Of a DNA stretch of 64,000 nucleotides, positions 4,507 through 54,469 are shown one piece after another. The stretch comes from a candidate division FCPU426 bacterium (GTDB lineage: Bacteria > Oederibacteriota > JAAXVQ01 > JAUVAV01). Position 1 is the stretch's first letter, and each line of letters opens with the position of its first letter. The position numbers and the translations under genes are program-made. The notes beneath the pieces are model-generated. The model was not told the origin of the DNA, made no database searches, and saw only the letters and a list, made by a program, of their open reading frames with translations. The stretch spans positions 360,907 to 424,906 of the forward strand of contig JBFLYH010000003.1 in NCBI GenBank assembly GCA_040756875.1. The letters run 5' to 3'.

Positions 4507-4515
4507 CCACTTCAG

Positions 4516-15535: not shown

Positions 15536-15674
15536 GATGCATTTGCGGGATTCAGAAAACAAGGATAACACCTCGCTTTTAAACCTTAAAATCGTATTAT
15601 ATAGTAATTAGACTCTCCGGGCGACCAGTAATTTCAACAAAATAAGGTGTCTTCGAGAAGTATTTAGGCGTGTG

Positions 15675-35705: not shown

Positions 35706-35759
35706 ACCCCCAATAGCAAAAAACGTATTAAAATCAAACAGCTAATATATTACGTATAA

Positions 35760-35788
35760 AATATAACACTTTTCTTGTCGTATTTCAA
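35760..35788 (-). promoter_or_regulatory. Candidate promoter for the 2236-aa gene
   Basis: Minus strand TTGAAA-17 nt-TATATT with a TG extended -10, in a very AT-rich spacer where chance matches are likely. Confidence 0.4.
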
Positions 35789-35827
35789 ATTGATACTATA
35801 ATAAATAACCAATTAAAATAAGCATAA

Positions 35828-38800
35828 TCAGGCAGCGCTATCAACTGCCCTACGTTGTCTAGGTTGTGGTGCTTCCCAGATTTGGTTATCTATTTTAATG
35901 ACTGGGAATATCCGTTTAAAGCGAATTAAAAGATTTGGCTTTTCAAGTACAGCCATGGGTAACTGCCGGGAGAACTGACTGCCATCTGCCATTTGCAGGG
36001 TCACGTTTTTCTGGTTTGACGGCAGGCTAGATAAAATATCCAATACCGCTTCTCTGGCCACCGGGTCGTCTTTAACTTCATTTAATACTCCCAATAACTC
36101 TTGCAGCAATAGCGAAACCTGAACCGAATCCCGTGAACGGTTCAGTGCCAAGACGATCTGTTCCAGCCAGGCGCTGCGGGCAATCGCCCGGGAGGCAGGC
36201 GTGGCAGCCATGGTCCGCAAACGGTATTGGAACGCAAACCCCGGCGCCAACACCGTCAAACCGGTCAGCACAAAACTCGCGGCCATATTCACTCCGGCGC
36301 CGTTAACCAGGGCCAGGCTGATTCCGGCCCAGGCGGCCAAACTCAAGCCGATGACCGCGGCCCTGCCCCAGAAATTGTTTTGAGGCCTGGGAAGCAGGAG
36401 CATGAGCTTGAGTCCGGCTGGCAGGCCGCGCATTTGAATAATAGCCCGCCCCAGTCCGCTTTCCACAAAGCGCAGTCTTAAACGCTGCCAAACCGTGGTT
36501 CCGGGCTGCGCCGTTACACCCAGGTTCTGGTCCTGGCGCACGGTGGCAATGATTTCCTGCAGCGGCTGCGCCTCGGCCGTTGTGCCTGCTGCTGTTTCGG
36601 CGTCTGCCGGCTCAGCGGCCCGTGGAGCCAGCACACCGCGGAACCCGGCCACGCTCAGACCGGCCAGGGCAAACACCGCACCCAAAGCCACGGGCACGGC
36701 TGCCGGCAGGGCGACGAAGAAACTCGCGGCCAACAACAATCCCGAAGTTAAAAAGACGCCACTCAATACAACCGCATCCCAACGCGGCCCGGTCCGTAAA
36801 CGGGCAAACGCCATGGGGGCGGTCAAGGTGTCCAGCGTATGGGTTAAAAATTCCGCCAGACCCGCAACCAAGGCATAGCGGAACGTGCCTGTTGGCATGG
36901 ACGCCATGTTGATCCCGAACACGCGCAGGAGGCGCTGCGCCGCGGCATGTGAAAATCCTTCATGCCAGGCAATCGGCCAGTCCGCTTCGCCCAACACGGC
37001 GCCGGTCTGGGGGTCCACCATCTTCTCGATTTTCGGATCATAGGCTCCGACCGGTTCGCCCACGTGGCGCAGCAGGCCCGGGAATCCGTACTTGGCCCGC
37101 AACAACCGGAATGCGGTTGCCAGCTTGGCCGAAGGATAGAGCAACCCGAGCCCCAGGGACGGCAGCAGGGGCAGCCCCAGACCCAGGCTCAAAATCCCGA
37201 TCCAGACCGCGGCCACGACCAAGGTGTTCCGCAGGCTTAATGCCTGGTAATCGCCGTTTTTCCTCCCCAAGACCGCCTGGCGCACGATTCCGCGGCTCAT
37301 GATCGTGTCCGCGATCATCTGCTCGATCATGCGGACCGTGCGGCTGGCGCTTTTTTGCGTCTCCGGAGAAATGATGAGCGCGTCCGTGGGCACGGGCATT
37401 CTCGACTGGGGTTCCGTGGATTTACGGTCTTTGGCTGTCAGGTCAAAATAAACCCGGATGTCCGTCCGTTTAACGTATTGCTCGGGCGTTTGCCCCACCA
37501 CGATGACCCGGCCTTTTTGGGCTGAGTTTTGGACCAGCCGGCTGACCAGGGTATCCAGCAATTGCCGCTGATCCCTGAAGATTTTCGCGCCCACGGTCAA
37601 CTCCGAGGATTCCGTGGTTTCGCCCGCCAGTTCGTTGCGGTTAAAAGCCATGGTTTCCTTGGCCGCGCCTTTACGGTTGTAGTCGGCGGTCAGACCTTCG
37701 GCCGTTAACCGGAACTTGGCCCGTTTGACAAATTCCTCGAAGCTGTCCGCCTTGCCGGCTGCGAGAAACTTCTCATACACCGAAACGATTCCCCGATAAA
37801 CCAACCCGACATCGATGACCCGGTAACTGAGGCTCTGAGCCAGTTTCCAGGCAGCCTCGATCTTGCCCGTACCCGAGGGCCCACCCATGGTAATGATCCA
37901 ATCGACCGCCTTGATGACGTCCTGTTTGACCAGGGTATAGCCCGGACGGGTGGCGCTCTCATCGAGGAAATTAGGCAGGATTTTAATCTCAGCGCCGAAC
38001 GCCATGGGATCAACCGGCGCGATTTTAATTTTAACGTCGAAATAGCCGTCGGTTATTTGCTCGATTTTTATGCGCCCGTCTGCGCCCTGGGTGATGCTGA
38101 CGTTGACCCCGGCGGCTTTTTGGCCGTCAACGACCTTGATGCGGTAGCCGTGCGCTTCCAAATAGGGTATCAGCTGATTGACCGCTTTCTCAATCTGGTC
38201 CACATGAGGAATGACCAATAGGGTCCCTACGACGTCGTCCACGATTTTCTTGACGTTTCGTTCGTTGTATATGTCGGTGTCGCTGAAATCCGGCTTGGCT
38301 GGCATGGCCTTATTCCAATACCGCAGGAAATTCATGAGGATAGAGAAGGGTTCCTTGACTCGGCCCGGAGCGACCAGCATGTCCAAATCCACCTGGTCCG
38401 CAAAGCTGCGCAAGTCTTCGCGCAAGCGTTCCATTTCTTTTTCCCGTCTGGCGGGATCGATCAACCGCCGGAGGCGGGCCATGGCCGGACGAAGCTCGGG
38501 ATGGCGGTCCAGATATTGATCGACCATCCCGCCGCCGTGCCGCTGTTCCCACAGGAGAGTGATTTCCCAGAACTTCCGCTCCGCATCAGGCAGGGCGTAG
38601 TGCCCCATTTGCCGCATCTCTTCAATGACTTGCCGTGCGTTCAGGAAAATGACCCCCAGATAATCGAAATCCATATCCTCGAGCGCTTCCTGGTTGTCGT
38701 GATACAACTGGCGCAAGGCGTCGATAGCCGCCAATTTGTCGTCGCTTTCGCTTGCCAGGCGCTGGGCCGTATTCACAAACCAGCGTTGGAAAATTTGGTC

Positions 38801-41800
38801 GTTGCGTATATTGAAATTCAGCAGACTCCATTCCGGCGAAATGAATTCCTTGGCTTCCTGCGCTTGGCCGTTGGCTTCCTGTTCCAGGTTGACGGCAAAA
38901 ACGATTTCGCCGCCCAAGGGGCGGGCGAAAGCCGCTAGCGCATCCGTGGCTGCTTTTTCCAGAACCCTAAACAAGTCCCGGCCCGGCATCTGGGAGCGGA
39001 CTTCGCCCTGGCGGGTCGGCACTTGGGCCAGGGCCTTATCATAGGCTTCGGCGCCGGCCACGCCCATGGAAAGCTTGGGTACGTACAAATAACCCGCATG
39101 CAGTCCGATTTTGGATTCAACTTCAAAGGGCATGGCAGCCAGCGTGTCAGCCGAGGTGCCCGAAGGCTGCAGGATGCCGGCCACTTCCAGAGCATGCTGC
39201 AGGTCTTTCTGGGCCGATATTTCATAAACAACGTGCACTTGCCGGCCTTCGGTAATCCCCACGGCGCCGTGCCCGAATTCCCTGACCGCGTTGCGCAACT
39301 GGCTGAGACGAATGTTGAAATCCCGCTCCGAGATGGTCCGGGCCTGGTTGTCGAGGTCGAAATACTGCAGGGTGACCACCCGGTAACGGCGGTTGAAGCT
39401 ATAGAATAAATAGGATTGAACGTCCTGCAGCAACCGGCTGAATTCTTTGTCGTTTCTCAGCTTGGTCGCAATGGCAAACCGGGCGGAAGTGTTTTCCGGC
39501 CGGAAGAAGAAAATATTTCTGCCCAAATATCCTTGCAGAATTTGCAAGGTTTTTTCATAAATGAACTCCGCGATATCCTGGCCGTAAATATCCTTCAAAT
39601 CGGAGAAAGAATCGATCTCCGCCACGGCCAGGGCCGCCGGTTCTCCGTCGGATAACAGTTTCTCCACCCGGCGCTGGCCGGAAACGCGCTGCGGAATTTT
39701 ATACCTGTCCCGGACAATGGTATCCTTGCCCAAACCGCCGACCATACCCGCGGCCAGGATGAATTGTCCACCGGCTGGTTGCTGGTTCAAGAGGGCGTAG
39801 ATCCCGATGGCGGCCAGGAGGATGATCATCGGGTTGCCGCGGACGAAATCAACCGCGCGCTGCAGATGCCGGCGCAGCACCGGCCAGGCGGTTTCCCGCA
39901 GGGCGGCCACGCGCAGGCGCAGTTTCTGGAACGCGCTCAAGAAGGCGGCTGCACCGGCCAGCAGCCCTACGCCCAGCAGGACGGCTCCAGCGCCAAACAG
40001 GGCCGCGGTCCCGGCGCCGAGAAAAACGGCGGTGTAGATGAGGTATCCCAGTCCAACGGCCAGGAACGAACCGCCGGCCAAGCCCATCACCAGCGATAAG
40101 GAAGCGGTGCCGCGCTCTCCCAAACGCGGGGTCCTGCCTTCGGGCTGGCTGGCCGTTTGCGCGACCGAGGCGATTTCAGCATCGCGTTTTTCTTTGGTCT
40201 GAAGCAACCGGTTCCAGAAATAAGCCAGCGTGGTCTCCAGCGGCCGGTCTTTGAAGAATTCTCCGCTGAGCGTGGTCAAAACATGTTCCTCGGCGCTGCG
40301 AAGCACGAAGAGGCGCTCAGCCTCGGTCAAACCGAATTGATCCATTACCGTGGACAGTTCCGGCAACACCTCGGAGTAGCGGTCCGCCAGCCAGGCAATG
40401 ATCATGGCCCGGGTCAGCCGCAGCATGCGCTGAGACCGCCAAGGGGACCCCAGGGAATACAAGGCTTGCATTAAATCATTCACAAAAGCACCGTGCGGCC
40501 CGCGCCAGGCCAGACGCCGCTCCAGGAAATCCCGGATCTCGTCCGGCGTCCCGTCCAGCGGGCTGGCCACCGGCGCAGCCCGCGCCGGGCGGGCCTGGAA
40601 TTCGTCGGCCCGCAGGATTCTGACCCGGGCCAGCAAGGCGCGGGTGGCGGCCATGGCATTGAGCGGCTGGTTCAAGGCGCGACGAACGGATACGCCCCAC
40701 AGCGGCGAGCGAACGGAACCGACATTGAAGCCTGAATCCGCCACTAAAGGCAGGTCATTGTCGAAAATCGAGCCCACCGAATCACCGGCTAAAAACAGCT
40801 CAGTGGTGTCAATACCCAGGTCCGCGGCCATATCTTCCGCGGCCCGGCGTTTGGTGACGTCCCACGGATAAATCCGCAGGTCCTTGCCTTCGACATACAT
40901 TGCATACTGCCGCTGCAACCGGGGAAACTGCCGGGTGATGAACCGCGCCAATTCGAAGGCCTTGTCCCGGCTTCTGCAGCTGACGTTGAAGTATCCCTGC
41001 CCCTCGGAAACTTTCTTGTCGGGATAGCTCGCCAGCAGCTGTTCAAGCAAGTTGATGTCGCCGGGTTGAAGCGTGCGCCGATAGGCCGCGTCTTCGACCG
41101 GCTGGCCGGACCGCACCTGCCATTTGGTCGCGCCGTTTTCCCCGTAGATCCGCAGGCGCTCCAAGTCCTGTTCCGTGGCGCCGTAGGCCTGCAATTGCTT
41201 GATGGTCTTGGCCATGGAGGAGGCGGTCATGATCCGACCCGTGGCCAATCCCACATACTTGCCTTCTTGCAGGGCCTGGGCAATGTCTTTTTCCTCCATC
41301 GTCCCGGTCCAGTCTGTCAGCATGCCCTTGTAGGTCTGACCCAGCCTCTCCTCCCACATTTTTCTTTCGACTTCGGGAAGTAGCGCCAAAAGTTTGGAGG
41401 TAGGCAGCAATTCCGTGCGACCGTCGCGCTCGTCCACTGCCACGGGTGCGCCCCGCTGGGTAAGCAGCACGGCGGTCATGGCATCAAAGAAGATGTTCAA
41501 AACCTGGGCCGGGCTCAAATTCAGGTCAGGACGGATTGGATCCAGCGCCGGCACGGCTTCCGCTTCCCGGGTTGGCTGTTGCCGCCTCAATTTGCCGAAT
41601 AATTCCTGCACGCGGGCGTAGAAGGTCTTGTTTGCAAACGCGTAGAAATCCTCGAAGTATCCGGGCCGGTGGTCTTTGCGACCCATTTCCGGCGCATCCA
41701 TGGCCATGAATTTCCTGAGCCACAGGGGAATACTGGCGTTGTTGACCGTGGCGTTGATCAGGATGATTTCCCTCTGCCCCGGCCGTTCCCGGAAGTTCTC

Positions 41801-44800
41801 GTAATTGCGCTGCAAGCTATCGAAGATCTTGTCCCGGCGGGTGGGCAGCGCGCGGCCGTCGGGAGTCCAGTATTGGACATCATAAACCACCTGCGTGGCC
41901 CCGGGTTTCAGTTCACGCAACCGGGCCAGCAGTTCGCGGTTGTTCCGGTCCCGCAGGGCTTCTTCGGCGTGGCTCGCGCGGCTCTTTTTGGACAGCTCCA
42001 GAACGTCCTGGCTGGGAAGCCCCGGATTCAGCACGGAGTTCAGCAGGACCGACAGGTTGGAAAATTGCTGGAAGCCGTCCGGATAGCGTTGGTTTTTAGA
42101 ACCGTCCAGGACGACCACGTGCGGAGCTTCGGTCATCAAGCGGCGCAAAATTTGGGGCGTAATGTCGTCTTCCGGCGCCATGCGGGCGTCCGCATCTTCG
42201 CGGTAGAACAAACGGTCCGCAATATAGGGCGGGTTGGTGTGGCTCATGCCCGAACGCGCGCGGGTCCGGATGAATTCGACCTGTTTCCCTTTCTGGGCAG
42301 CATACTCTTGGATATGCTGCTTCAGCGGCTGGGTGACGAACATGCCGTACGCCACGTTTTCGCAGATCAGGACAGGAGCCGTGGCGGCGTCGATAATGCG
42401 TTCAAGGTAGCGGGCCACCTGCAGGCTTTCATACGCCAGAAAATACTGTTCCTGGGCCGATTCCTTGATTTGCTGCTCCAGGCGCGACAAGGCGTCCAGG
42501 CCGAGTTCATCCACCATGTCCGCCACTGCTTCGATGCCCCGGTCCCGGATGGCGGCCAACTGGCGGTTGCTGGCCAGCAGGCTGAGCAGGCGGGCGGCGT
42601 TCTGGCCGGTCCGCTGGATCATCCGGTTCATTTGGCCGATGAAAAGCTGCACTTCCGCAAAATCGGCAAATCCGCCCTTTCGCTGGTAGTTTTCGAGCAC
42701 CTGCACGAAATGCACAAAGTATTGGGGCCGGTCCGCGATCAGCTGCACGATGACCGCCGCGTCATAATCTTTCAACCCCTTCAGCGCCGCATGGAGGCTT
42801 TCAAATTTATTAGCGGTCTTCAAATGTTCCTGATGCCGGAGCAACGCTTCGGTCAACTGCGGAACCACGGCCGCCAATTCCGGATGGGCCCGGACCAGGG
42901 CCGCCACTTTATTCTCGACTTGTGTTTTCTTGTCGCCCGGCCCGACCACCATGCCGGCAGCGGCGAAAATCACCCCGCCTTCCGCCGGATGCTGGGCCAG
43001 GAGGGAGTAAATGCCTATGGCCGCCAGCAGTACGATCATGGGATTGCCGCGGATAAAATCAATTACACGTTTGGCCAGCCTGGCGAAGCCCGCCGGATTG
43101 ACGACCTTGGCCAGCTTTGACAGCGTGGTGCGGGTGGGCAATCCGGTTATAACGGCCCCCATGCCTAGAATCAGCAGAATGCCGGCAGCGACCAGCCCGC
43201 CGGTCAGCAGGGTTGCGGTTCCGGTGGCGATGATGGCCGTCGTACCCGCCACGACCGCCGAGGCGCCGGTGAGCACGCCGGCCAGCGGCGCGGTAATGAA
43301 TCCGCCCTGGCCGGGTTTGGCCTCCAGCTGGGTGGGAATGGGCATTCCCCGCTTTTCCATTTCGAGGCTCAAGGCATTGGCAAAATCCTGGTCCACTGTC
43401 TGTCCCTGGGCTTTTTGCTCCAGGATTTGCCGCCAAGCAGCCAGCAGCGCCCCTTGGATGGCCCTTTCGATCTCCGGATTATCCGCGGACAGATTGGGAT
43501 CGATGGAATGAACGGAAATCTGAAGCCCGGTTTCGCCAAAACCGAGCGAAACTTTCAACATGGACCCAAAAGCATCCACCCCGAACTTCAGAACCCGGTT
43601 TTCTTCGGCGTTGTCGCCGATTTGGCCGTACGCCGAGCGGACCGCGGGATGCAGGTTCTCGTGCACGAGATCATAAGCTAGCAATTCCGGATCATTGAGA
43701 TGCCCGGCTGGCACATAGGTCCGGCCATTTACCAGGAAAGCGCCGAGCTCCTGGCCCTCCAAAGTGACCGGTGCATGCAATTGCACTTCTCCCGGATTCA
43801 AAGCGGACAGCGTGCGGTCCAGGGAACGCCAGGTGTTGATCTCCCTGGGGTCAGCGGGTTCTTCCTGCCCCTGCAGCCTCGCCAGCTGCTTCTTCACCAA
43901 TGCTTGAGCCCGGACCTTCGCGGCCCGGAATTTATCGATGTCTGCGGAAGTCTTTTCCAGGATCAGCGCCACATGACTCCCGAGCGGCGAGGTCATGGTC
44001 ATGTGGGAGGAGACCGCCCGGTCGCCCGCCTCCACCGGTACTTCCAGTTGCTGTTGCCGGCCCTCCAGGGCCAGCGAATAGGAGCGCGTGGCCGGGGCTT
44101 TCTTAATAAGCTCCACTTGCTCGGTATCAACGCGTATATTCGGCTGCGCGCCTTGGGCCCAGGCGGAAACATTCGGGGTCGAAACCGCCATGAACCCGGC
44201 CGCGATCAGGGCAAACAGCATCAGGAAAAGCGAACGGGGCCTGAACCCGCGGGTGCGCGGCGCAGTTTCCGCCGCTTCCACTTCCTCCACCATACGGCGC
44301 TGGGCGCCCGGCTCGGCGAACATCCCCTGCAGGCGGGTGACCGCCAACCCCATCTGCGTAACCAGGGCCGGCTGCCGCAGCGTGGGCTGATAGGCCGTGA
44401 TCTTGCCCTGTTTGGCCATGCTGGCCACGCGCAGGTCCGAGAACAAGCGGCCCAGACCGCGCTTGGCCGCCTGCTTGGTCGGCATTTCGGAGAAGACTGC
44501 GGTCAGGACGACGTGGGCCTGGTTGCCTGATTGCGGGTCGTTGATCTCCTTTTCCAATTCCGACAGCACGCCGGGCAGCTTCCTATTCATCCGGCCCGGT
44601 TGGCGCAGCAGGTTCAGGCCGTTCAGGTCCAGAATCAGGTGGGGCAAGCCGATCATCTGGTCGCCGGCCGTATAACCGATGGCGTCGTTGACTAATTTGA
44701 AGCGGTTATAATTGACCCCGTCCCGCGTGGCGATGACGTAGGAGGCCATGGTTTCATCGAGCGTCCGTTCCAGGACCGGGTCGGCCAGGACTTCCTCAAG

Positions 44801-47800: not shown

Positions 47801-50800
47801 TTTGAAAAGACGGTCGCGGAGTTCCTTCTGCGAATTTAAAAACACCGCCAGCAGCGTCGACAGGGCTGATTGGGTTTCCTCGCCGTAGAATCCGCGCCGG
47901 TCCAGGGCCAGCGCGCGCACGCGCTGCTGCTCCTGCAGCAGAGACCGGGCCACCCGCGCCACCAGGAGGGCGTTTTCTTTCTGGCGTTGCTTCAACGCCG
48001 GTGTTCCGCCGGGTTCGCGGTCAACGGCGCTGATCACGTCCGCAGTGTTGGCCACCACGTTCCGCAGGTGCACCTCGTCGTAATGGGTCGTTTGGCTTAA
48101 CTTGGCCCTCAGGCTTTCAGGCGCCAGTTCCTGCTCCACCACAAACGCCAGGGCGTGGGCCTCGGCAATGCCCTGGCTGCGCAGAGCCGCCTCCACCGCT
48201 TCATGCAGGATCGTGGATTTTTTCAAATCCCCCTCGAGTTGCCGCTCCGCGATGACCTGGAGTTTTCCGCCAGCCTGGCGGTGCACGGCCAGGGCGCCGG
48301 AGATCCGCTCGGTGGTCCGGACCTCGAAGTTTTCGGGCGAAAGCCCGCGCAGGTAAGCTTCCACGGCCGCGGCATCCTCCGCCTTGGCCAGGAAGGGACG
48401 CACCGCGTTGGCCGCCGCTTCGGCGCGTGAACGGATGTACTCGGCATATTCCGCCGGAGATTCGGGCTGGAGGTCGGCGGCGCGCGTTTCCACGGCCTCG
48501 AAGCCTTCGATTTCCACGGGCGTGGCGATGTCCTTGCTGGCGCGGGCCTGCCCGTTTTTAAGATCGATCACGCCCACGATCTGGGAAGGATCGAAGCGGG
48601 TCATGCCTTCCAGGGCGTGGCCCGGGAACAGGGCGACCTGCGTGAATCCCAGGGCGGCCAGGGCCTGGCGCATTCCGCGGATGCCGGCCAGGAATTGGGC
48701 CTCCGCGCCCCGGAATCCCGGACGCTGATAGTGGGAGGAGCCGTTGTCCACGCACAATACGGTCTGGCCGTTGATCATCGCCACGCGCATGTAACCGGCA
48801 AATTGCGCCTGGGCGATGTTGTCGGCATTAGGGTTGGAATAGGTGGCGTGCGGCACCCCGCCCCGGGAAACGATCTGGCCGCTGGCCGCGGCATAGGTCA
48901 GGAAATCGCTCCAGCCCACGGTTCCCGTAGTGTCCCGGACCTGCTGCTTGAGGCTGTCCAAAGCTTTGACGTATTCCGGATTGCGGCGGGCGAAATCCTC
49001 GAAATTCAAGGTCTGCACCAGCAGGCGTTTTTGTTCGGTCAGGTTGCCTTGCAGGGCCAGCACATCCGGATCATCGCTGTAGCGGTTGACCAGCGTCGCC
49101 ATGAGCTGTTCCGCCTCATCCAACAACTCAATCAGACGGGTCCGCTGGTATTTCCCGCTTTGATACTGCTGGAGCGCCGTGTTGAACGCCTGGCGGACGC
49201 CGGCCATCAACTGCTTTTGTTCGTCTTCAACCACGCGGCCGGCCCTGCGCGGCCCGACCAAGGCCAGGGGGCGTGTCTGCGGCAGGGCGGCCACCGCTTG
49301 TTCGTGGGCCGCCTGGGCCAAGCGGGCGAGGGAGGCGGTTTGGCCGCCTTGGGCCTGCCGCAAGGCCGCCAGTTCATCGGCCACGATGTTCAATTCAGCC
49401 GCCAGGGCGGTCTGGGAAGCCAGGGAGCGGTCCGAGGCGACTTGTTCAAGCGGCACCTTCAGGCTGTCGGCCAGATTGCGCGCATACTGCATGCGATAAA
49501 GGGCGAGCGCCATCTGCTCCACTTCAGCCCAGTCGGCCGTATCGAAGAACCAGGCGATCTGGTCCAATGCCTGCTGCAGGTTTCCGCGGATCGCTTCACG
49601 CCGGGACTGGGCGGCGTTCGCCGCGTCCTGCAACTGTTTGAGCGCCGTCACATACCCTTGGGTTTTAGTGGCATTGCCGAGGAACCAGACGGCTTGTGAT
49701 GTGTACTGGGAAAATATTTGCTGAAAACGCGGGTCATTCGCGAGTTTGTCCGCCAGGAATGGAAGGGGATAATCCGCAGGCAGGAAGCGGCTAAGCTCTT
49801 CCTGCGACGGAGGCGCTTTGTTGCCAAACAGCCGTATGACCTGCTGCGATGCAGTCTGGCGCAACAGGTCCTGCCCTATCCGGCGCAGGCTGTTGCGCAC
49901 GGCATCCGCCTGATCGGCAAATCCCGTTTCCTGGAAATTGGAACGGAAGAAACGCCCGAAATCACGAAGCGCACCAATTGCAGCCTCGGGAGTCGGCACT
50001 TGGGTTTGCAGTTTGCGGTCGATCAATTTCGCCATGGTCCCGGGCTGCGAAGCCAGGGCTTTGTCCAGCGTGGCCTGCAGCAACTGCCGGGCTTGCGGCT
50101 GAAGGGCAACAGGCAGGTCTTTGAGCACGGCCGCTGCACGGGCGTCGAAGTTCAGCGCGAATTCGACGGCATAATTAGCCTCGGTGAACTTGGCCGCTTC
50201 GTCGGAGGCCACCCGTTCAACCATCAACGTCAAGGCCGGCGTCAAAGCCAGGCCCTCCTCGCCGTCGAAAGCCATCCTCACCAACTCGCGCACGCCGTCC
50301 GTGGTGCGAATCGGCGCGCGGGCGGTTTCATAGGCTGAAAATTCGGCCGGAACGACGTCTTGGGCGTAGGTCTTCAAGTCTTGGATATGCTTGGTCACGG
50401 CCGCATCCAGACTCAGGCCCTGCAGCGTCAGCTTGAAGGTTTCCAGCAGGTCGGCCCCTGAATAAAACCGGCTGTCCATGCCGGCCAGGGCCTGGGATAG
50501 TTGCGCCAGCAGTTTGACGCCGTCCTGGTGGGTTTTCTCCGTCGTCCGTCCGGGCACAAGGGATTCGAGTTGTCCGGCCGACAGTCCGCCGGTGTACGTC
50601 GCCAGGGTATCGATCGAAACCTCGGTCCAGCCCCGCGCGTTGAACCAGGTGCTCATGGTTTCACGTTCGCCGTCGGTTAAGGCAATTTCGCTCGCCGGCC
50701 CGACTGCGGCCAAGGGCAACTCCACCGTCTCCCCGAGAATGGCGCGCCGGTTGACATTGCCGATTTCCGCGGTGTAATCGGCAATGCCCAACTGGTAGCC

Positions 50801-53800
50801 GGCCAGGATTTTGGCGATCAGGCCGGCCCGGATTTCGCCGATGCGCGTCTGTTCCAAACCGGCGATGTGCCCGCTTTCGTGCGCCAGGCGGCGCAGCAGC
50901 TGCATCTTGCCGCGGTTGTTTTTCAGCTGGTCCAGGGCCTTGGCATTGAGAACCATGCGGTTGCCCTGCACCTCGGAAAACGCCTGGCCGTGTGCCAGTG
51001 CATCCATTTCACCCGATAGACGTACCTCGAACTCCTTGTCGCCGCTGGCCTTGAAGGCGGCCATGATTTCCGAGAGTTCGAACGCCGCATTCGGATACTG
51101 TTGCAGGCGCTGCTGGAGTTCAAACCGCTCCTGCTGCTGGGCCGGCGTGGGTGCGGCGATGCGGTTCAAGAAATTCAACCGCCGGTTCGAAGCCCGGCGC
51201 TCCTGATCCAGCGTCCGCTGCGCCGCTTGCACGCGTTTCACCAACTGCGAAGTTTGCAAAATGACGCGTCCGTCGGGCCGCATCTGGAATCCCAACAGTT
51301 TCAGGCCGTCGGTGACAATTTGGCGCTGCCCGTTGTCGGCCACCTGGCCCAGGGGCGTGGCGCGGTCCATGATTTGCTCCAGGGTCAGCGCTGAAGTCCC
51401 GGCCCCGGCCGGTCCCAGCAGGGCGTTGTCGGGTTTGCGGCTTATATTCAGGTTGATCACCGGAGCTTCGGCGACTTCCTCTTCCACCGGAGTCTCCGCG
51501 CTGCTGCCGGCCATGATTTCCTGGCTGGCGGCGGTCATGGGCAGTTCGGCGCCCTGCAGCAGATCGGCGTCCAATTGCTGGGCAAAATTCAGCAATCCCT
51601 GGCGGATGGAAGCGATTTGAAGCTGGGCCGGGCGGAAAAATACGATCGGATTGAAACTGAAATTGGGGATCTGGACTTTCAGGTTGTTCTGCTTGGCCAA
51701 CTGCCTCATGGCATCTCGCTGGCGGTCGCTGGTAAACTCCGGCAGCAGGCGTTCGGGGCTCAACACATCCTGTTCACCCAGCTCAAAACTACGGCGTCCC
51801 GCGCGGATGGCCTGGACCAACTGGGCCAAATGCGAACCCGCGCTTTTCAAATCCAGACTGTCCAGAGACGTTCCGGCCAAAACAGCCTCCGCCAGCTCCT
51901 CGGCCTCGTTGTAATCCCGCACCAGACGGTTCAGGTTGTCCGACGGCGTAACCTCGCCCAGCAGGGGTAGGCGGCCGTTCCGGAAGGCCATGCCTGCCAG
52001 CGCGAGGCGTTCGGCGCGGCCGGCAATGAAGGCTTGCAGGGTTTTGTCGTCTTTCGACAGATCCAGAACGTTTTGCAAATCCACTTCCAATTCCGTCCGG
52101 TTCACCTGGTTCTGCGCATAACCGTACTTATCCAGCGACCACAGCATGGCCCGCTCCACCAGGCGCTGCTCCGGCCTGAAATACCCGCTCATGCGGGCGG
52201 TGACAACGGACCAAAGAGTGGCCGCCGGCCTGAATAATCTTGCCAAGGCCGCAACAAGGGAGCGCGCCGCCGATACCGGCGTCAGTCCCCGCAATCCCTG
52301 GGGCGCGCCCCAGGCAATGGCCAGCGTCCCCAGTGCCCGGGTGATTGGGTTGGTGACTTCCGCCACCTGCGCCGCAAGCCGGCTCAGGGCGAAGGCACCG
52401 GCGCGTGCAGGTTCCTCAGTGCCGAGGATCTGCGCGCGCTTCTGGGCGAACTCGTCGGCGCCTACGAATTGGAACTGGAAGTTGTTGCCGTAGAGCACTT
52501 CCCCGGACAGCTCCGTGGTGTAGGCCGTGGTGGCGTTGGGTCTTACGACCACGTACCACCCGGCCTCCTGATCGAACTGGAAGACAAAAACATTAGCCGC
52601 GGGATTGGATTGCTCGGGCCTGAAAACCAGGCTGACCTTGGCGTCGTCCTCGGGATAGTTCCCGCGCGCCTCGCGGAACGCCTGTTGCAGGGCATCGCCG
52701 GCAAGCTTGTCTTCCAGCACCAATTTGCGCCCCAACTCGATCTCCCAAACCGTTTCGAGATAGCGTTTGAAGACGGGATTGTTGAAAAGGCTGCGGGGAG
52801 CGAAAATATTTTCATTGCGGGCCAGCAATTTCTCCAAGGGGGTGCGCTCATTGCGCAGCAGCGAAAAATAGGGGTTGGCGACGTCCGTACGCGTCAGGCG
52901 AGGTTTAACGGTCAGGAACGAGACTCCCTGGGTCCGCAGGACGTTTTCGACATGCGAGGCGTGAAAACCGCCCGTGATCAGCACGGCCAAGGACGTCTGG
53001 TTCTTGCGCATGGCCTGCATCAGGTTTTCCACAAAAGCCTGCGAACGCTGATCAGCCACGCGGTAGAAATCCGCGGACAGGTCGAGGTATTCAACCAGCT
53101 TGAGTACACCCGGGTCCAGATCCGGCTGCAGGGCGTACCGGTAACTGACGTTTTCCAGAAAATGCAGCATGGACTCCAGCGTGAAATCCTCGCGGTGGCC
53201 TCGGAAGTAGCGCAAATCCTCTTCGGTCGCGCTGATGTTGATGAGGTTCTCCATTATTTTCAGGACGTACAGCTGATGGTCCAACTGGCGTTGCTCGTCG
53301 CTGGTGTACAAGCGCTGCCGGACAGCCCGGTCCAAAGCCTCGGCTTCATGCAGCAGACGTTCGTAGTCGACCACCGCGTTCACGGGCAGCCGGTGCTCCA
53401 AGGCGTACAGGCGGATGACTTTGTACGGTTCCAGTTCCACTCCCAGCCGGTTGGCTTCAGCCAGCAGGAAATCGCAATACTTTTCGAGCGTCTGGTTTTC
53501 CTGGTCGAAATTCTCTCGTTCATGGTCCATTTTGGCCAAATCCGTGCTGTAAATCGGGCGTTTGAGTTGTTCGAGGGCAAAACGCAAATCCTGGCAGTAG
53601 CCCTGGCTTTCCTCGTTCAGGAATTTCATCAGGGTGTTCTGGTTATGATCATAGAGCGCCTGGGATTCAATGCCCTGCAATACCAATGGTTCCGCACCCG
53701 TGGCAGCCTGGTATTCCGCTCCGGTTATGCGTCCCCGCTGGAGGAAGTACTGTCCGACTTTGTCCTTGACCGGCGATAAGGGGATACGGGCAAGTTTGTC

Positions 53801-54220
53801 GACATTCACCGGCGTGCTCTCGCCTTCCACGCCGACCACGCGCAGACGGTTTTTCCTGCCCAGTTCCGCCAGCATGGCTTGGATGTTGCTTTGCACTTCA
53901 TAATTGCAATGCAGGTCCTGAATATACACCACGGTTTTTCCCGAAGCGCCCTGGTAACTGCTGGTAACGCGCCCCCATTCAGGTTTGATTTCGATGGATT
54001 GCCCGTTGGCGGCCAGCGGGGTATAGCGGAATTCCTCGATTAAACTTTTCGGATAGGTGGCCGGCTCAAATGCGAAGGCTACGGAGGGCCAGATGAATCC
54101 CAGGGATATCATCAAGGCCAGGGTTTTAGCGATTGGCAGGCGGCCAGGACGGCGCCAGGCATCCAGACTGGCTACGGCTGGCACGGGTGTTTGAGCTGCG
54201 GATGGTTTCATCGAAGACAT
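35828..54220 (-). CDS. Giant multidomain membrane protein (6130 aa): QDLH/GGxH domain, HExxH motifs, 2 cytidylate-kinase-like, split GGDEF-like, HAD hydrolase and RelA/SpoT-like domains, multiple TM clusters
   Basis: Uninterrupted 18.4-kb ORF with a GAAGGGAG SD. Motifs read directly: ITVDGPDATGKT, SDIDG...RHGGDEG...TLSIG...AKDAGKNQV, LTDWTGT...ATGR...GENGA...GDS...ND, GRVKE..SI...DDVVG...GY...EIKI, ITMGGPSGTGK. Confidence 0.85.
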   Translation of the reverse strand: MSSMKPSAAQTPVPAVASLDAWRRPGRLPIAKTLALMISLGFIWPSVAFAFEPATYPKSLIEEFRYTPLAANGQSIEIKPEWGRVTSSYQGASGKTVVYIQDLHCNYEVQSNIQAMLAELGRKNRLRVVGVEGESTPVNVDKLARIPLSPVKDKVGQYFLQRGRITGAEYQAATGAEPLVLQGIESQALYDHNQNTLMKFLNEESQGYCQDLRFALEQLKRPIYSTDLAKMDHERENFDQENQTLEKYCDFLLAEANRLGVELEPYKVIRLYALEHRLPVNAVVDYERLLHEAEALDRAVRQRLYTSDEQRQLDHQLYVLKIMENLINISATEEDLRYFRGHREDFTLESMLHFLENVSYRYALQPDLDPGVLKLVEYLDLSADFYRVADQRSQAFVENLMQAMRKNQTSLAVLITGGFHASHVENVLRTQGVSFLTVKPRLTRTDVANPYFSLLRNERTPLEKLLARNENIFAPRSLFNNPVFKRYLETVWEIELGRKLVLEDKLAGDALQQAFREARGNYPEDDAKVSLVFRPEQSNPAANVFVFQFDQEAGWYVVVRPNATTAYTTELSGEVLYGNNFQFQFVGADEFAQKRAQILGTEEPARAGAFALSRLAAQVAEVTNPITRALGTLAIAWGAPQGLRGLTPVSAARSLVAALARLFRPAATLWSVVTARMSGYFRPEQRLVERAMLWSLDKYGYAQNQVNRTELEVDLQNVLDLSKDDKTLQAFIAGRAERLALAGMAFRNGRLPLLGEVTPSDNLNRLVRDYNEAEELAEAVLAGTSLDSLDLKSAGSHLAQLVQAIRAGRRSFELGEQDVLSPERLLPEFTSDRQRDAMRQLAKQNNLKVQIPNFSFNPIVFFRPAQLQIASIRQGLLNFAQQLDADLLQGAELPMTAASQEIMAGSSAETPVEEEVAEAPVINLNISRKPDNALLGPAGAGTSALTLEQIMDRATPLGQVADNGQRQIVTDGLKLLGFQMRPDGRVILQTSQLVKRVQAAQRTLDQERRASNRRLNFLNRIAAPTPAQQQERFELQQRLQQYPNAAFELSEIMAAFKASGDKEFEVRLSGEMDALAHGQAFSEVQGNRMVLNAKALDQLKNNRGKMQLLRRLAHESGHIAGLEQTRIGEIRAGLIAKILAGYQLGIADYTAEIGNVNRRAILGETVELPLAAVGPASEIALTDGERETMSTWFNARGWTEVSIDTLATYTGGLSAGQLESLVPGRTTEKTHQDGVKLLAQLSQALAGMDSRFYSGADLLETFKLTLQGLSLDAAVTKHIQDLKTYAQDVVPAEFSAYETARAPIRTTDGVRELVRMAFDGEEGLALTPALTLMVERVASDEAAKFTEANYAVEFALNFDARAAAVLKDLPVALQPQARQLLQATLDKALASQPGTMAKLIDRKLQTQVPTPEAAIGALRDFGRFFRSNFQETGFADQADAVRNSLRRIGQDLLRQTASQQVIRLFGNKAPPSQEELSRFLPADYPLPFLADKLANDPRFQQIFSQYTSQAVWFLGNATKTQGYVTALKQLQDAANAAQSRREAIRGNLQQALDQIAWFFDTADWAEVEQMALALYRMQYARNLADSLKVPLEQVASDRSLASQTALAAELNIVADELAALRQAQGGQTASLARLAQAAHEQAVAALPQTRPLALVGPRRAGRVVEDEQKQLMAGVRQAFNTALQQYQSGKYQRTRLIELLDEAEQLMATLVNRYSDDPDVLALQGNLTEQKRLLVQTLNFEDFARRNPEYVKALDSLKQQVRDTTGTVGWSDFLTYAAASGQIVSRGGVPHATYSNPNADNIAQAQFAGYMRVAMINGQTVLCVDNGSSHYQRPGFRGAEAQFLAGIRGMRQALAALGFTQVALFPGHALEGMTRFDPSQIVGVIDLKNGQARASKDIATPVEIEGFEAVETRAADLQPESPAEYAEYIRSRAEAAANAVRPFLAKAEDAAAVEAYLRGLSPENFEVRTTERISGALAVHRQAGGKLQVIAERQLEGDLKKSTILHEAVEAALRSQGIAEAHALAFVVEQELAPESLRAKLSQTTHYDEVHLRNVVANTADVISAVDREPGGTPALKQRQKENALLVARVARSLLQEQQRVRALALDRRGFYGEETQSALSTLLAVFLNSQKELRDRLFKQIPGANTLQLARTLVQRGFDLLDQEQLNAFFASFGHKAETRAGLYTRQVLSEEINRLRRSLRGTVFENTLDQAQAAVQSLESGQGLTVKVNGQDRAITDLQIRKITSKASVSPEALKIGAFFTVEETPAGPVGFVNVMAHRQLPQALLHELLESVLGLDHRNVADLEAVSAYSLGTQPFLQSLAREIFWPTRVLSAIVGVIGILATLLAVGAIATGLVAPAAAVTLAGSGLVPLLWSVATFFKPRFIITVDGPDATGKTEIGEVLSRYFGYTYADAAIYYRAFALIVKDEIDKGNWTEDAFRAETPAEQQAFATFTKIVMDRLQQANVTVYFDRALGEQRMRVFLREGAFPGRRREVTDQVLPNAVNAAGEDFQRLESLASRLGRIPAVQKVVDDHLRALAKRENLVAVGQTMGTKLFDRDAKMRFYVVNNDLRNRAERLLKRPLRTEEELAAGLKEIENMDLSARTRSRDPLRPIPEAVVLDTGNFTLAEVLGTAQQSIIRKSRVVRSAIGRLWSMARERNRMLNRIQGENARRQMLEQAGDAWLGFSDIDGLSGYNLIYGKSITNFLLDDVLGIIEETANSRPVKLILEKKRQAVRRQLLGALLTLHFRQVFKLLPKLAETRVTTIRHGGDEGLYLMPENFTPQEIKEIMRLFRSRVQLNMHRQFMAYDLRGLKPQEEQQLRAIAAKINEDYGDPKLARVAFDEVYGVRLLLRVGRNDLAGRFQRELQGFAPVPADQVNGRLLEQIFKKRLEQAGLQTARLENLNLTKMAWPREAEDFKPPIDQKGYGYLQEGYFLTPTLSIGATKASRVDFAYVEKQAAGELSRSEVQAWSEALYQLAGDFLHVAKDAGKNQVVVDDLTKPIQAKEKKAEAPVLGDAHGRQLLRQQLLYEDNMILRSGDKPKHDAIYPKHFSTEGFRELVAQRLAVLAGRGDFQPEVHVSRAPPDSGPDKVHIAVITPETTYLLELEGQYYGPFVEQARGILRQRMAEEWSQQQQRPLEEVLADPVLERTLDETMASYVIATRDGVNYNRFKLVNDAIGYTAGDQMIGLPHLILDLNGLNLLRQPGRMNRKLPGVLSELEKEINDPQSGNQAHVVLTAVFSEMPTKQAAKRGLGRLFSDLRVASMAKQGKITAYQPTLRQPALVTQMGLAVTRLQGMFAEPGAQRRMVEEVEAAETAPRTRGFRPRSLFLMLFALIAAGFMAVSTPNVSAWAQGAQPNIRVDTEQVELIKKAPATRSYSLALEGRQQQLEVPVEAGDRAVSSHMTMTSPLGSHVALILEKTSADIDKFRAAKVRAQALVKKQLARLQGQEEPADPREINTWRSLDRTLSALNPGEVQLHAPVTLEGQELGAFLVNGRTYVPAGHLNDPELLAYDLVHENLHPAVRSAYGQIGDNAEENRVLKFGVDAFGSMLKVSLGFGETGLQISVHSIDPNLSADNPEIERAIQGALLAAWRQILEQKAQGQTVDQDFANALSLEMEKRGMPIPTQLEAKPGQGGFITAPLAGVLTGASAVVAGTTAIIATGTATLLTGGLVAAGILLILGMGAVITGLPTRTTLSKLAKVVNPAGFARLAKRVIDFIRGNPMIVLLAAIGIYSLLAQHPAEGGVIFAAAGMVVGPGDKKTQVENKVAALVRAHPELAAVVPQLTEALLRHQEHLKTANKFESLHAALKGLKDYDAAVIVQLIADRPQYFVHFVQVLENYQRKGGFADFAEVQLFIGQMNRMIQRTGQNAARLLSLLASNRQLAAIRDRGIEAVADMVDELGLDALSRLEQQIKESAQEQYFLAYESLQVARYLERIIDAATAPVLICENVAYGMFVTQPLKQHIQEYAAQKGKQVEFIRTRARSGMSHTNPPYIADRLFYREDADARMAPEDDITPQILRRLMTEAPHVVVLDGSKNQRYPDGFQQFSNLSVLLNSVLNPGLPSQDVLELSKKSRASHAEEALRDRNNRELLARLRELKPGATQVVYDVQYWTPDGRALPTRRDKIFDSLQRNYENFRERPGQREIILINATVNNASIPLWLRKFMAMDAPEMGRKDHRPGYFEDFYAFANKTFYARVQELFGKLRRQQPTREAEAVPALDPIRPDLNLSPAQVLNIFFDAMTAVLLTQRGAPVAVDERDGRTELLPTSKLLALLPEVERKMWEERLGQTYKGMLTDWTGTMEEKDIAQALQEGKYVGLATGRIMTASSMAKTIKQLQAYGATEQDLERLRIYGENGATKWQVRSGQPVEDAAYRRTLQPGDINLLEQLLASYPDKKVSEGQGYFNVSCRSRDKAFELARFITRQFPRLQRQYAMYVEGKDLRIYPWDVTKRRAAEDMAADLGIDTTELFLAGDSVGSIFDNDLPLVADSGFNVGSVRSPLWGVSVRRALNQPLNAMAATRALLARVRILRADEFQARPARAAPVASPLDGTPDEIRDFLERRLAWRGPHGAFVNDLMQALYSLGSPWRSQRMLRLTRAMIIAWLADRYSEVLPELSTVMDQFGLTEAERLFVLRSAEEHVLTTLSGEFFKDRPLETTLAYFWNRLLQTKEKRDAEIASVAQTASQPEGRTPRLGERGTASLSLVMGLAGGSFLAVGLGYLIYTAVFLGAGTAALFGAGAVLLGVGLLAGAAAFLSAFQKLRLRVAALRETAWPVLRRHLQRAVDFVRGNPMIILLAAIGIYALLNQQPAGGQFILAAGMVGGLGKDTIVRDRYKIPQRVSGQRRVEKLLSDGEPAALAVAEIDSFSDLKDIYGQDIAEFIYEKTLQILQGYLGRNIFFFRPENTSARFAIATKLRNDKEFSRLLQDVQSYLFYSFNRRYRVVTLQYFDLDNQARTISERDFNIRLSQLRNAVREFGHGAVGITEGRQVHVVYEISAQKDLQHALEVAGILQPSGTSADTLAAMPFEVESKIGLHAGYLYVPKLSMGVAGAEAYDKALAQVPTRQGEVRSQMPGRDLFRVLEKAATDALAAFARPLGGEIVFAVNLEQEANGQAQEAKEFISPEWSLLNFNIRNDQIFQRWFVNTAQRLASESDDKLAAIDALRQLYHDNQEALEDMDFDYLGVIFLNARQVIEEMRQMGHYALPDAERKFWEITLLWEQRHGGGMVDQYLDRHPELRPAMARLRRLIDPARREKEMERLREDLRSFADQVDLDMLVAPGRVKEPFSILMNFLRYWNKAMPAKPDFSDTDIYNERNVKKIVDDVVGTLLVIPHVDQIEKAVNQLIPYLEAHGYRIKVVDGQKAAGVNVSITQGADGRIKIEQITDGYFDVKIKIAPVDPMAFGAEIKILPNFLDESATRPGYTLVKQDVIKAVDWIITMGGPSGTGKIEAAWKLAQSLSYRVIDVGLVYRGIVSVYEKFLAAGKADSFEEFVKRAKFRLTAEGLTADYNRKGAAKETMAFNRNELAGETTESSELTVGAKIFRDQRQLLDTLVSRLVQNSAQKGRVIVVGQTPEQYVKRTDIRVYFDLTAKDRKSTEPQSRMPVPTDALIISPETQKSASRTVRMIEQMIADTIMSRGIVRQAVLGRKNGDYQALSLRNTLVVAAVWIGILSLGLGLPLLPSLGLGLLYPSAKLATAFRLLRAKYGFPGLLRHVGEPVGAYDPKIEKMVDPQTGAVLGEADWPIAWHEGFSHAAAQRLLRVFGINMASMPTGTFRYALVAGLAEFLTHTLDTLTAPMAFARLRTGPRWDAVVLSGVFLTSGLLLAASFFVALPAAVPVALGAVFALAGLSVAGFRGVLAPRAAEPADAETAAGTTAEAQPLQEIIATVRQDQNLGVTAQPGTTVWQRLRLRFVESGLGRAIIQMRGLPAGLKLMLLLPRPQNNFWGRAAVIGLSLAAWAGISLALVNGAGVNMAASFVLTGLTVLAPGFAFQYRLRTMAATPASRAIARSAWLEQIVLALNRSRDSVQVSLLLQELLGVLNEVKDDPVAREAVLDILSSLPSNQKNVTLQMADGSQFSRQLPMAVLEKPNLLIRFKRIFPVIKIDNQIWEAPQPRQRRAVDSAA

Positions 54221-54333
54221 GAGGAGACGACTCTCCCTTCCCTTACGCTGCGGGTTCCATGCCCTTTTCGATAAAAAGGCAGCCTGAAATGGGAAAACCG
54301 CAGACTATTTCCCTTATATATTATTTCAATTTT

Positions 54334-54362
54334 AGTATAGCACAGGGTTTCATGGATCGCAA
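54334..54362 (-). promoter_or_regulatory. Candidate promoter for the 6130-aa gene
   Basis: Minus strand TTGCGA-17 nt-TATACT with a TG extended -10, about 115 nt upstream of the ATG. Confidence 0.5.
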
Positions 54363-54469
54363 ATCAGGGGGCCGATTTCCAGGAACCGCCGAAATCCGCT
54401 TCAATTTAAGGCCTTTTTCGGCTGGCGTTTCAACTTGTTGTAACCGGGCAAATAGCTTGATCCATTCTT

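Follow-up and report, generated by a model that had tools for sequence, protein, structure and literature searches.

Giant gene at the locus

The window analysed here is a 64,000-nucleotide stretch of DNA from an uncultured groundwater bacterium of candidate division FCPU426 (GCA_040756875.1, contig JBFLYH010000003.1, positions 360,907 to 424,906), whose genome comprises 3.22 Mb in seven contigs. It holds one ATG-to-stop open reading frame (ORF) of 6,130 amino acids (aa), P0001, located exactly at window positions 35828–54220 on the minus strand and hereafter called the giant. The genes around it encode ordinary chromosomal functions (AlaRS, PriA, CoaBC and ClpB), together with secreted proteins (two subtilases, a VWA protein and a PD40 protein). 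Our analysis indicated that the giant very probably belongs to, and has the architecture of, a family of giant membrane-threaded, modular enzyme-carrier proteins. All parts of the giant described below lie on the minus strand, and their coordinates are window positions given after the residue numbers; numbers such as P0002 denote other proteins collected for comparison.

A previous interpretation made from the letters of the DNA alone (the sequence-only reading) had described a single 6,130-aa protein and proposed read mapping as a check against a chimeric assembly. A Logan contig of run X1 (33,285 bases, depth ~59), the product of a second assembler, spans window positions 35500–54500 contiguously with 0 differences and 0 gaps. 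The DNA of the window probably comes from the sample of run X1, a groundwater metagenome, so the contig is independent as to assembler only. P0002, from a different assembly, is colinear with the giant in two blocks of 74% and 60% identity, in a genome of the same genus the orthologous head lies in a frame of 5,843 aa (ortholog L098, G032:C1:209800-229000), and orthologous colinear frames of 5,800–5,843 aa are present in other assemblies. The GC content across the ORF (0.57–0.63) is similar to that of the remainder of the window, and self-BLAST at 1e-3 did not find a long internal repeat. The giant ORF is a genuine single gene and, to the extent that these comparisons can show, its assembly is not chimeric.

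A functional single protein would be lacking if the frame were a chimera of the assembly, a pseudogene in decay or a run of separate genes read together by mistake. The only run holding the DNA is the probable source sample, no RNA run is listed, and two modules described below, GGDEF-like 2 and CMK2, appear degenerate, all of which would suit such an explanation. It is nevertheless highly improbable: the frame is open over 18.4 kb with an identical contiguous sequence from the second assembler, colinear orthologous frames occur elsewhere, and hundreds of comparable stop-free giant frames exist in relatives. The ratio of nonsynonymous to synonymous substitution rates (dN/dS) against the same-genus ortholog, at a dS of ~1.1 that is near saturation, was 0.20 overall and below 0.52 in every segment.

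N-terminal segment and head domain

The chain starts with a segment (residues 1–54; 54059–54220) that resembles a Sec signal peptide or signal anchor, with a basic tail and one hydrophobic helix ending in A-F-A|F-E. Small residues at -3 and -1 suggest that cleavage may follow this helix, and the family consensus at its end is FPYLTWAFE.

Directly behind it lies the head domain (residues 55–500; 52721–54058), the "QDLH domain" of the sequence-only reading, whose QDLH motif is indeed found at residues 101–104. The domain can now be reread as a head of the TIKI/erythromycin-esterase/ChaN type that also heads about ten paralogs. Its AlphaFold (AF2) model was built from a 19-sequence alignment (predicted local distance difference test, pLDDT, 79.7; predicted template modelling score, pTM, 0.74) and contains a large helical insert at residues ~190–400. 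VIA comparison of this model returned HopBA1 (Z 9.0), 2qgm (8.9), EreC (8.4), ChaN (8.4) and 2rad (7.8), with PMT (Z 6.3) and RRSP (Z 6.0) lower, and the best Foldseek matches were EreC, 3b55 and 2rad (probability 0.90, E 0.01–0.04). D102-x-H104, E132 and H420 were invariant or nearly so in alignments of 19 and 18 sequences. The spacing between H104 and E132 is 28 residues, and D102-x-H104 matches the position of RRSP E3900-x-H3902.

According to the available text of PMC6254334, the TIKI superfamily covers the structures matched by the head and has a 2His/2Glu catalytic motif. Catalytic His and Glu are given there as 28 residues apart in Bcr135 (H85/E113) and in RRSP (H3902/E3930), and the full RRSP set as E3900, H3902, E3930 and H4030 (PMC6254334). 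The best fold matches of the head are exactly the structures of this superfamily, with which it shares D-x-H, a Glu at +28 and a distal His. By contrast, its first acidic residue is Asp where Glu stands elsewhere, it has a helical insert of ~200 residues, it lacks a match to the TraB or Erythro_esteras hidden Markov models (HMMs), and it invariably forms the N-terminal part of very long modular proteins. The head is membrane-tethered beside a transmembrane (TM) helix; Tiki and TraB are also membrane-tethered.

Pfam and NCBIfam gave no match to residues 1–1000. Because the Z scores are moderate and the curated HMMs silent, the head is filed with the TIKI superfamily by modelled fold and motif only, outside any curated family. 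It is predicted to be a peptidase or esterase that keeps the His/Glu catalytic motif, and with a dN/dS of 0.065 it is the most constrained part of the giant.

Family, distribution and paralogs

In a phmmer search with residues 1–560, 7,351 representative clusters passed E<=1e-3, and 1,158 of them also passed E<=1e-30. The head was N-terminal in all 150 of the matches listed, in proteins of 408–7,768 aa. Public records with close head matches are labelled Candidatus Firestonebacteria and Goldiibacteriota, and the weaker matches are to Omnitrophota and to one Nitrospirota record. In the survey of the host phylum, the head was found in 15 of 99 genomes (host included), all within the host's own order: in the host genome and 10/10 others of one family, f1, in 4/4 of a second, f2, and in 0/84 of the other 21 families.

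The Omnitrophota survey began from one Omnitrophota genome, and the head alone was tested for shared ancestry. At E<=1e-5 the head profile was present in 97 of the 121 Omnitrophota genomes sampled. A genome with matches typically had twelve or more of them, and the frames concerned were up to 23,964 aa long. Because the head profile is found across Omnitrophota, the giant is a member of the family behind the Omnitrophota giant genes.

The host genome itself contains 11 head matches, in frames of 12,551, 12,450, 10,037, 8,807, 6,158 and 4,323 aa and in smaller ones of 2,613, 2,248, 1,271, 1,136 and 90 aa. They correspond to about ten genes, since some frames are cut by contig ends. Together the head-bearing frames amount to ~185 kb, or ~5.7% of the 3.22 Mb, and four of the paralogs are 8,793–12,520 aa long. 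The N-terminal head is all that the host paralogs have in common with the giant. A cargo scan of five other head-bearing host frames (20 pieces, ~48,000 aa) revealed mostly sugar-related domains, comprising Phosphorylase (glycogen phosphorylase), NTP_transferase (sugar nucleotidyltransferase), PPDK_N, TreT_GT1, GT1, GH130 and GH99, with GNAT, methyltransferases, HD, HAD, DnaJ, CheR, aldose epimerase and metallophosphoesterase in addition.

The same pattern was observed outside the host genome. A length-matched search identified P0002–P0005 as colinear relatives, while other proteins of 5,000–7,800 aa share only residues ~15–500. Relatives that share the head only carry PGM, HIT, iPGM, dCMP deaminase, epimerases, HAD, Ham1, methyltransferases and HATPase_c, and in 18 relatives of 2,000–3,000 aa the sporadic domain differs from protein to protein. 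The constant parts of the family are the N-terminal signal/anchor helix and then the TIKI/erythromycin-esterase-type head. Between these and the C-terminus lie interchangeable modules, namely His/Glu motif modules of the HExxH and HExxE kind, TM linkers and enzyme-like cargo. A subset of members also has, towards the C-terminus, a conserved His/Glu module flanked by TM segments.

Nucleotide-related cargo modules

The giant was scanned against Pfam and NCBIfam as nine overlapping 1,000-aa pieces, and cytidylate kinase (CMK), in two copies, was the only significant match. Two CMP-kinase-like domains had been called from motifs, and both scored above the Pfam cut-off of 26 bits for PF02224. CMK1 (residues 2388–2638; 46307–47059) reached 77.4 bits over model positions 1–207 and has the P-loop GPDATGKT; CMK2 (residues 5443–5577; 37490–37894) reached 29 bits over the first 120 of 211 model positions and has the P-loop GPSGTGKI. 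The equivalog TIGR00017, with its cut-off of 135.55 bits, gave 68.6 bits for CMK1 and 25–26 bits for CMK2, whereas the separate housekeeping cmk of the host genome scored 245.5 bits. Both copies have G-Q-T where housekeeping Cmk has G-R-D.

Two split GGDEF-like domains and a GGDEF fragment had also been proposed. GGDEF-like palm domain 1 (residues 2680–2801; 45818–46183) carries an insert of ~40 residues and the motif RHGGDEG (RHGGDEGLYL), which together justify the label "split GGDEF-like" for this copy. It was aligned by hhalign with the 12 GGDEF domains of the host genome at a probability of 92.4% (E 5e-7), and no Pfam GGDEF HMM match was reported for it. GGDEF-like palm domain 2 (residues 4857–4940; 39401–39652) is degenerate, with FFFRPENTSARF where R-GGDEF is expected; its hhalign probability of 96.3% came from a query alignment mixed with copy-1-type sequences, its own copy being without the GGDEF motif. 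The hhalign alignments of these copies cover GGDEF positions 28–109 of 160, and control region R3 gave 0.3%. The fragment is a short GGDEF-like stretch (residues 3171–3195; 44636–44710) with an hhalign probability of 84% over only 25 columns. The GGDEF HMM PF00990 remained below its gathering cut-off of 23.8 bits for copy 2 (13 bits) and for the short stretch (10.2 bits). Profile–profile comparison thus upholds the first copy and a degenerate second one, while the Pfam cut-off was not reached and the fragment amounts to 25 columns.

The RelA/SpoT-like call concerned a region that no HMM recognizes: PF04607 (RelA_SpoT), searched at E<=10, did not match the giant. Five sequences were used for an AlphaFold model of residues 5110–5440 (pLDDT 77.4, pTM 0.68), which showed a RelA/SpoT-homologue (RSH) fold at residues ~5248–5432 (37925–38479), preceded by a helical region at 5140–5247. 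VIA matched it to SAS1 5dec (Z 11.6, root-mean-square deviation 2.5, 143 residues aligned), RelP 6ewz (11.4), Rel and CapRel (11.1 each; 8acu, 7ztb) and SAS2 (11.0). All 28 of the Foldseek matches listed were RelA/Rel/SpoT/SAS/FaRel proteins (best E 2.2e-3, probability 1.00). Comparison by hhalign with 27 RelA_SpoT domains of the phylum was weak (38.5% over 44 columns), with the motifs colinear. R5287, K5289, S5293, D5329, G5332, Y5393 and E5411 were invariant in the five-sequence alignment. On the modelled structure the alarmone-synthetase fold of residues ~5248–5432 is settled. Among 7,516 candidates, no stand-alone shorter homolog of this region was found, and the host genome has separate housekeeping relA/spoT genes.

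The RSH-like domain resembles small alarmone synthetases and RSH proteins in fold (Z 11.6–10.0, 143–161 residues aligned) and in the colinear motifs GRVKxPFSI, DDVVG, Y..K and EIKI. It differs from them in being HMM-silent, in being set inside a giant membrane protein and in its altered EIQIRT and A-x-R positions, with EIKILP at the former and G-T-L-L where the reference DxxxxR/A-x-R stands.

The HAD phosphatase call is best kept as a candidate of type IIB/Cof-like character (residues ~4290–4510; 40691–41353). HAD motifs I–IV are DxDxT, S/T, K and GDxxxD; the region has DWTGT, with Thr at Asp+2, GLATGR and GDSVGSIFDND. The nearest ESM-Atlas clusters (Hydrolase_3/S6PP/Trehalose_PPase/PMM, score 0.94), which are a lead only, agree with these motifs. 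The Pfam score is weak: Hydrolase_3 PF08282 gave 13.7 bits against a cut-off of 20.9, over model positions 174–220 only, and the genome-wide scan gave no Hydrolase_3 match here at E<=10.

The cargo of the giant is nucleotide-centred, comprising two CMP-kinase-derived P-loop domains, a GGDEG palm domain and its degenerate copy, the HAD candidate and the nucleotidyl/pyrophosphoryl-transferase domain of RSH fold.

Membrane segments and His/Glu motif modules

Kyte–Doolittle analysis gave hydrophobic clusters at residues 29–54, 2326–2382, 3326–3353, 3639–3746, 4704–4816, 5659–5695, 5814–5866 and 5952–5998. The TM segments of the sequence-only reading agree with them in position, and the beads-on-a-string layout with TM linkers is real. 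TM cluster B (residues 2326–2382; 47075–47245) is a 57-residue hydrophobic stretch with room for one or two helices. A lone signal-peptide-like helix, TM C (residues 3326–3353; 44162–44245), is preceded by basic RTRGFRPR and followed by VSA-WA. TM linker D (residues 3639–3765; 42926–43306) consists of a Gly/Ala/Thr-rich hydrophobic stretch, a basic loop and a RGNPMIVLLAAIGIY helix, and TM linker E (residues 4704–4835; 39716–40111) is its duplicate, with 39% identity over 142 aa (E 5e-24) by direct comparison. The chain had also been described as apparently exported; the N-terminal Sec signal/anchor-like segment agrees with this, and a self-consistent topology placing the modules could not be derived.

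The coordinates read from motifs were likewise in place, with HESGH at residue 1114, HExxE at 2006 and 2289 and HENLH at 3520. The HESGH...GE module (residues 1041–1200; 50621–51100) has a small zinc-peptidase-like motif, and its Peptidase_M10 and M48 matches were weak (17 and 15 bits) and below cut-off. The H-E-x-x-H...G-E motif is kept in 10 homologous segments, with three copies in P0017. A HEAVEA...HA.AF..E module (residues ~1950–2060; 48041–48373), which belongs to no known family, is present in two copies each in P0016 and P0020. Directly before TM cluster B is a LHELLE..G..H module (residues ~2250–2325; 47246–47473) that recurs in P0016, P0017, P0019 and P0020. The HENLHP module (residues 3354–3638; 43307–44161) keeps its motif in P0003 and P0017 and is absent from P0002 and L098. 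Helix C and the HENLH module are together missing in the same-genus ortholog and retained in P0003 (~residues 3317–3637, window 43307–44245, ~320 aa).

Near the C-terminus, a TM-flanked C-terminal (CT) module (residues 5656–5870; 36611–37255) carries the motifs W..AHE..AH and E.LAH.LD. It has 16 segments in 12 proteins, four of them in one 12,426-aa paralog, and it gave no Pfam match and no usable ESM-Atlas match. The C-terminal region (residues 5871–6130; 35831–36610) contains two further hydrophobic clusters and is shared with P0004, P0005, P0016–18, P0021 and P0024.

Separately, the SSHY region (residues ~1661–1900; 48521–49240) is 59% identical to P0004 over residues 1668–1899, other blocks being 28–54% identical, and its dN/dS against the same-genus ortholog was 0.27.

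Modularity and selection

The giant was searched against 154 other collected proteins and the host ORFs of at least 1,000 aa, and the sharing pattern was a mosaic. Residues 2650–3150 are shared with P0017, P0029, P0031, P0034, P0053 and P0085, residues 4800–5450 with P0034 and P0104, and the C-terminal region with nine other proteins.

Purifying selection acts on all modules of the giant. By segment, dN/dS was lowest after the head in the CT module (0.092) and CMK1 (0.10), followed by HAD and GGDEF-like 1 (0.16 each) and the RSH-like domain (0.26). The degenerate copies are the fastest-evolving cargo (GGDEF-like 2, 0.40; CMK2, 0.41), and the TM linkers ranged from 0.40 to 0.52 (linker D, 0.45).

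Genomic neighbourhood

Directly downstream of the giant is a 2,236-aa paralog (28995–35705, minus strand) with the same head (profile positions 22–458), no other shared part and no Pfam match. Upstream of 59 family loci, no gene recurred except another family member, at 16 loci; such tandem arrangement is common.

Directly upstream are two minus-strand genes with overlapping stops, at 54470–57043 (857 aa) and 57040–57729 (229 aa). Both have signal-like N-termini and YD-repeat-like motifs, with a weak RHS_repeat match of 18 bits, below cut-off. Beyond them a 2,149-aa gene (57828–64000, minus strand) extends past the window (genome frame C3:418734-425183). A 159-nt (53-aa) unit is repeated in it at least 11.7 times in tandem, with 71% matching; YD/RHS-like repeats and then a long Ala/Gly/Ser-rich tail follow, and Pfam gave no match. 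Its region has strong AT and GC skew, with AT skew down to -0.41.

Three of the six S8 subtilases of the genome lie within ~30 kb downstream of the giant, at 18703–20352 and 24685–26292 (both minus strand) and, outside the window, at G000:C3:356325-357146. FlgD_ig is a further match of the two that lie in the window, above cut-off in one and slightly below it in the other. A link between subtilases and the family was considered and rejected, there being no S8 gene beside the other head-bearing paralogs. Window positions 14001–16000 have a GC content of 0.48 against ~0.62 around them. This dip includes a 349-aa ORF without a Pfam match (14522–15571) and the start of a PD40/beta-propeller protein (15675–16838).

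Proposed working and alternatives

Taken as a whole, the explanation that we consider fairly probable is a giant membrane-threaded enzyme-carrier with a TIKI-type head, tethered nucleotide cargo and possible trimming. The chain would be inserted co-translationally via Sec, with the head and the HExxH modules on the periplasmic side. The basic flanks that precede helix C, follow cluster B or lie within linkers D and E would face the cytoplasm. At least CMK1, GGDEF-like 1 and the neighbours of both may lie in the cytoplasm, because each of these nucleotide modules directly follows a basic, cytoplasm-type flank. The cargo would act as enzymes tethered to the membrane. The head might trim the chain into separate membrane-anchored pieces, as in a polyprotein, or else act on an envelope substrate. 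The nucleotide theme would be the cargo set of one paralog and not the purpose of the family.

The sequence-only reading had gone further and suggested a device for manipulating or sensing nucleotide pools. On that view, the modules would work jointly at the membrane, where they would monitor pools of nucleotides or second messengers or alter them. Every assignable cargo module is nucleotide-related, and the module set and order are kept in P0002 (74% and 60% identity) and partly in P0004 (40%). CMK1, GGDEF-like 1 and HAD are well constrained (0.10–0.16), and the CMK and RSH copies are extra, because separate housekeeping cmk and relA/spoT genes exist. The invariant RSH residues R5287, K5289, S5293, D5329 and E5411 fall in stretches that align to GRxKxxxSI, DxxxxR and ExQIRT. 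Against this, the cargo behind the same head in paralogs and relatives is unrelated and mostly concerned with sugar metabolism, so the family as a whole does not have the nucleotide theme. Four modules (GGDEF-like 2, CMK1, CMK2 and RSH-like) have altered signature residues, no PAS, GAF, REC, EAL, HD-GYP or PilZ domain was found with Pfam and NCBIfam, and no topology model places the modules on one side of the membrane. The domain calls behind the suggestion hold, whereas a dedicated device lacks specific support and, in the family context, is unlikely.

Less likely still is a contact-dependent or predatory weapon, in which the exported chain would release toxic nucleotide-modifying modules into a neighbour cell, as in polymorphic toxins or MARTX. 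The RSH-fold matches include CapRel (Z 11.1), FaRel2, Tas1 (Z 8.3) and an exported SAS (Z 10.0), the head fold is common to the effector domains HopBA1, PMT and RRSP, and YD/RHS-like repeat proteins are encoded upstream. Predation is also the reading of the Omnitrophota giants published in the available text of 10.1101/2023.11.21.568195. However, at least eight hydrophobic clusters argue for retention in the membrane of the producer, and other family members carry cargo for sugar metabolism of the housekeeping type. The neighbourhoods of family members showed no secretion-system gene, no conserved partner and no small ORF resembling an immunity gene, and PADLOC gave 0 matches in the nine pieces. 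The family combines a constant N-terminus and a variable middle with a conserved C-terminus, whereas polymorphic toxins vary at their C-terminal tips.

Returning to the membrane-threaded enzyme-carrier, the cleavage step taken alone is plausible but distinctly tentative. If the chain is cut, the candidates are the hydrolase-like head, which is conserved, and the HExxH modules, which are repeated. A more specific version would make the TIKI-type head a maturation protease and the giant genes of Omnitrophota and of the Firestonebacteria/Goldbacteria-labelled order operons in one frame. Their product would pass through the inner membrane, HExxH-aided cuts at the TM linkers would yield many enzymes each with its own anchor, and paralogs would exchange cargo cassettes by recombination at the linkers; we regard this version as unlikely. 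The 2023 preprint, in its available text, suspected cleavage by C39 or S8 domains (10.1101/2023.11.21.568195). Neither domain was found inside the giant in the Pfam and NCBIfam scan of its pieces. Candidate junction motifs were tried and rejected: R[SA]ExR as a delimiter occurs 0 times in the giant against a shuffle mean of 0.47, and the enriched 4-mers TPEQ and LSPE stand in a context that resembles helix N-caps. Among 10 host paralogs, the junction motif search returned no exact 5-mer or 6-mer occurring at least 8 times.

Several results weigh against the enzyme-carrier explanation. Hydropathy and positive-inside counts yield no self-consistent topology for the giant. Linkers D and E are homologous and the same number of helices is therefore expected in each. 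Since the ortholog is without one single-helix module, everything downstream of it would flip. About half of the chain is without an assigned fold (residues 501–1040, 1201–1950, 3766–4240, 4561–4703 and 5871–6130). The head assignment is of moderate strength, depending on a moderate modelled fold match (Z 8–9) and a motif: the TraB_PrgY_gumN PF01963 and Erythro_esteras PF05139 HMMs did not match anything in the genome, even at E<=10, and a PDB profile search with the head alignment returned only a chance-level carboxypeptidase row (E 0.31). The motif searches in the giant and the 10 host paralogs did not yield a cut-site or junction motif that recurs, and no conserved partner gene was found at the 59 family loci. 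No RNA run was found to hold the DNA of the giant, X1 being its sole holder. SecA_DEAD gave no match at E<=1 in the giant or in any head-bearing host paralog, and the giant, at 6.1 thousand amino acids (kAA), is smaller than the at least 10 kAA of the 2026 catalogue and the at least 30 kAA of the 2023 study of Omnitrophota giants.

As a separate observation on topology, the flip in ortholog L098 is avoidable if the Gly/Ala/Thr-rich start of linker D inserts in two ways.

Comparison with reported giant proteins and polyproteins

Giants of this kind have been reported from Omnitrophota, most of which reportedly carry a divergent SecA-DEAD domain according to the 2023 study. In the available text of Nielsen & Lui 2026 (10.64898/2026.06.07.730766), long proteins include "multi-enzyme metabolic clusters", 94% have TM helices or a signal peptide, and a PF07517 architecture cluster comprises 20 proteins. 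West-Roberts et al. 2023 (10.1101/2023.11.21.568195), as far as its available text goes, described many TM regions and enzyme domains including GGDEF, HAD_2, NUDIX and PPDK_N.

The giant resembles these proteins in being a single long ORF with many distinct enzyme-type domains, none dominating, and TM segments between them, and in having much of its length without a Pfam match. The repertoires overlap in HAD, GGDEF, HD, methyltransferase, GNAT, GT1, PGM and PPDK, and the head of its family is widespread in Omnitrophota (97/121 sampled genomes). Apart from its smaller size, it differs in that its host belongs to another phylum, where the head is limited to one order, in having no SecA-DEAD, C39 or S8 domain, and in its nucleotide-centred cargo. 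The host has SecA_DEAD matches only in the housekeeping secA and, weakly and below cut-off at 20.7 bits, in another frame of 844 aa. This SecA_DEAD-like stretch (G000:C1:1086794-1086982, minus strand) belongs to a frame directly upstream of the 10,037-aa head-bearing paralog. The main texts of 10.64898/2026.06.07.730766 and 10.1101/2023.11.21.568195 do not mention an esterase/ChaN/TraB/Tiki-like head, and a literature search found no work connecting Omnitrophota and erythromycin esterase.

Like MARTX and viral or phage polyproteins, the giant strings together unrelated enzyme modules with built-in protease-like modules that are shuffled among relatives. Unlike them, it has many TM segments, and no cysteine-protease (CPD) domain, RTX repeats, secretion partner or cut-site motif was found.

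The giant adds a case to an already reported kind of multi-enzyme giant protein. New are the occurrence of giant multi-enzyme membrane proteins outside Omnitrophota as well, and the single recognisable, strongly constrained protease/esterase-like head that unites thousands of giant proteins. Such proteins fill several percent of some small genomes. The giant itself is a comparatively small member (6.1 kAA) with well-delimited nucleotide-enzyme modules. Because the four candidate catalytic residues of the head and the modules are testable in vitro, the question of cleavage is experimentally approachable. If the head does act as a maturation protease, it would be a handle on whether and where giant bacterial proteins are cut.

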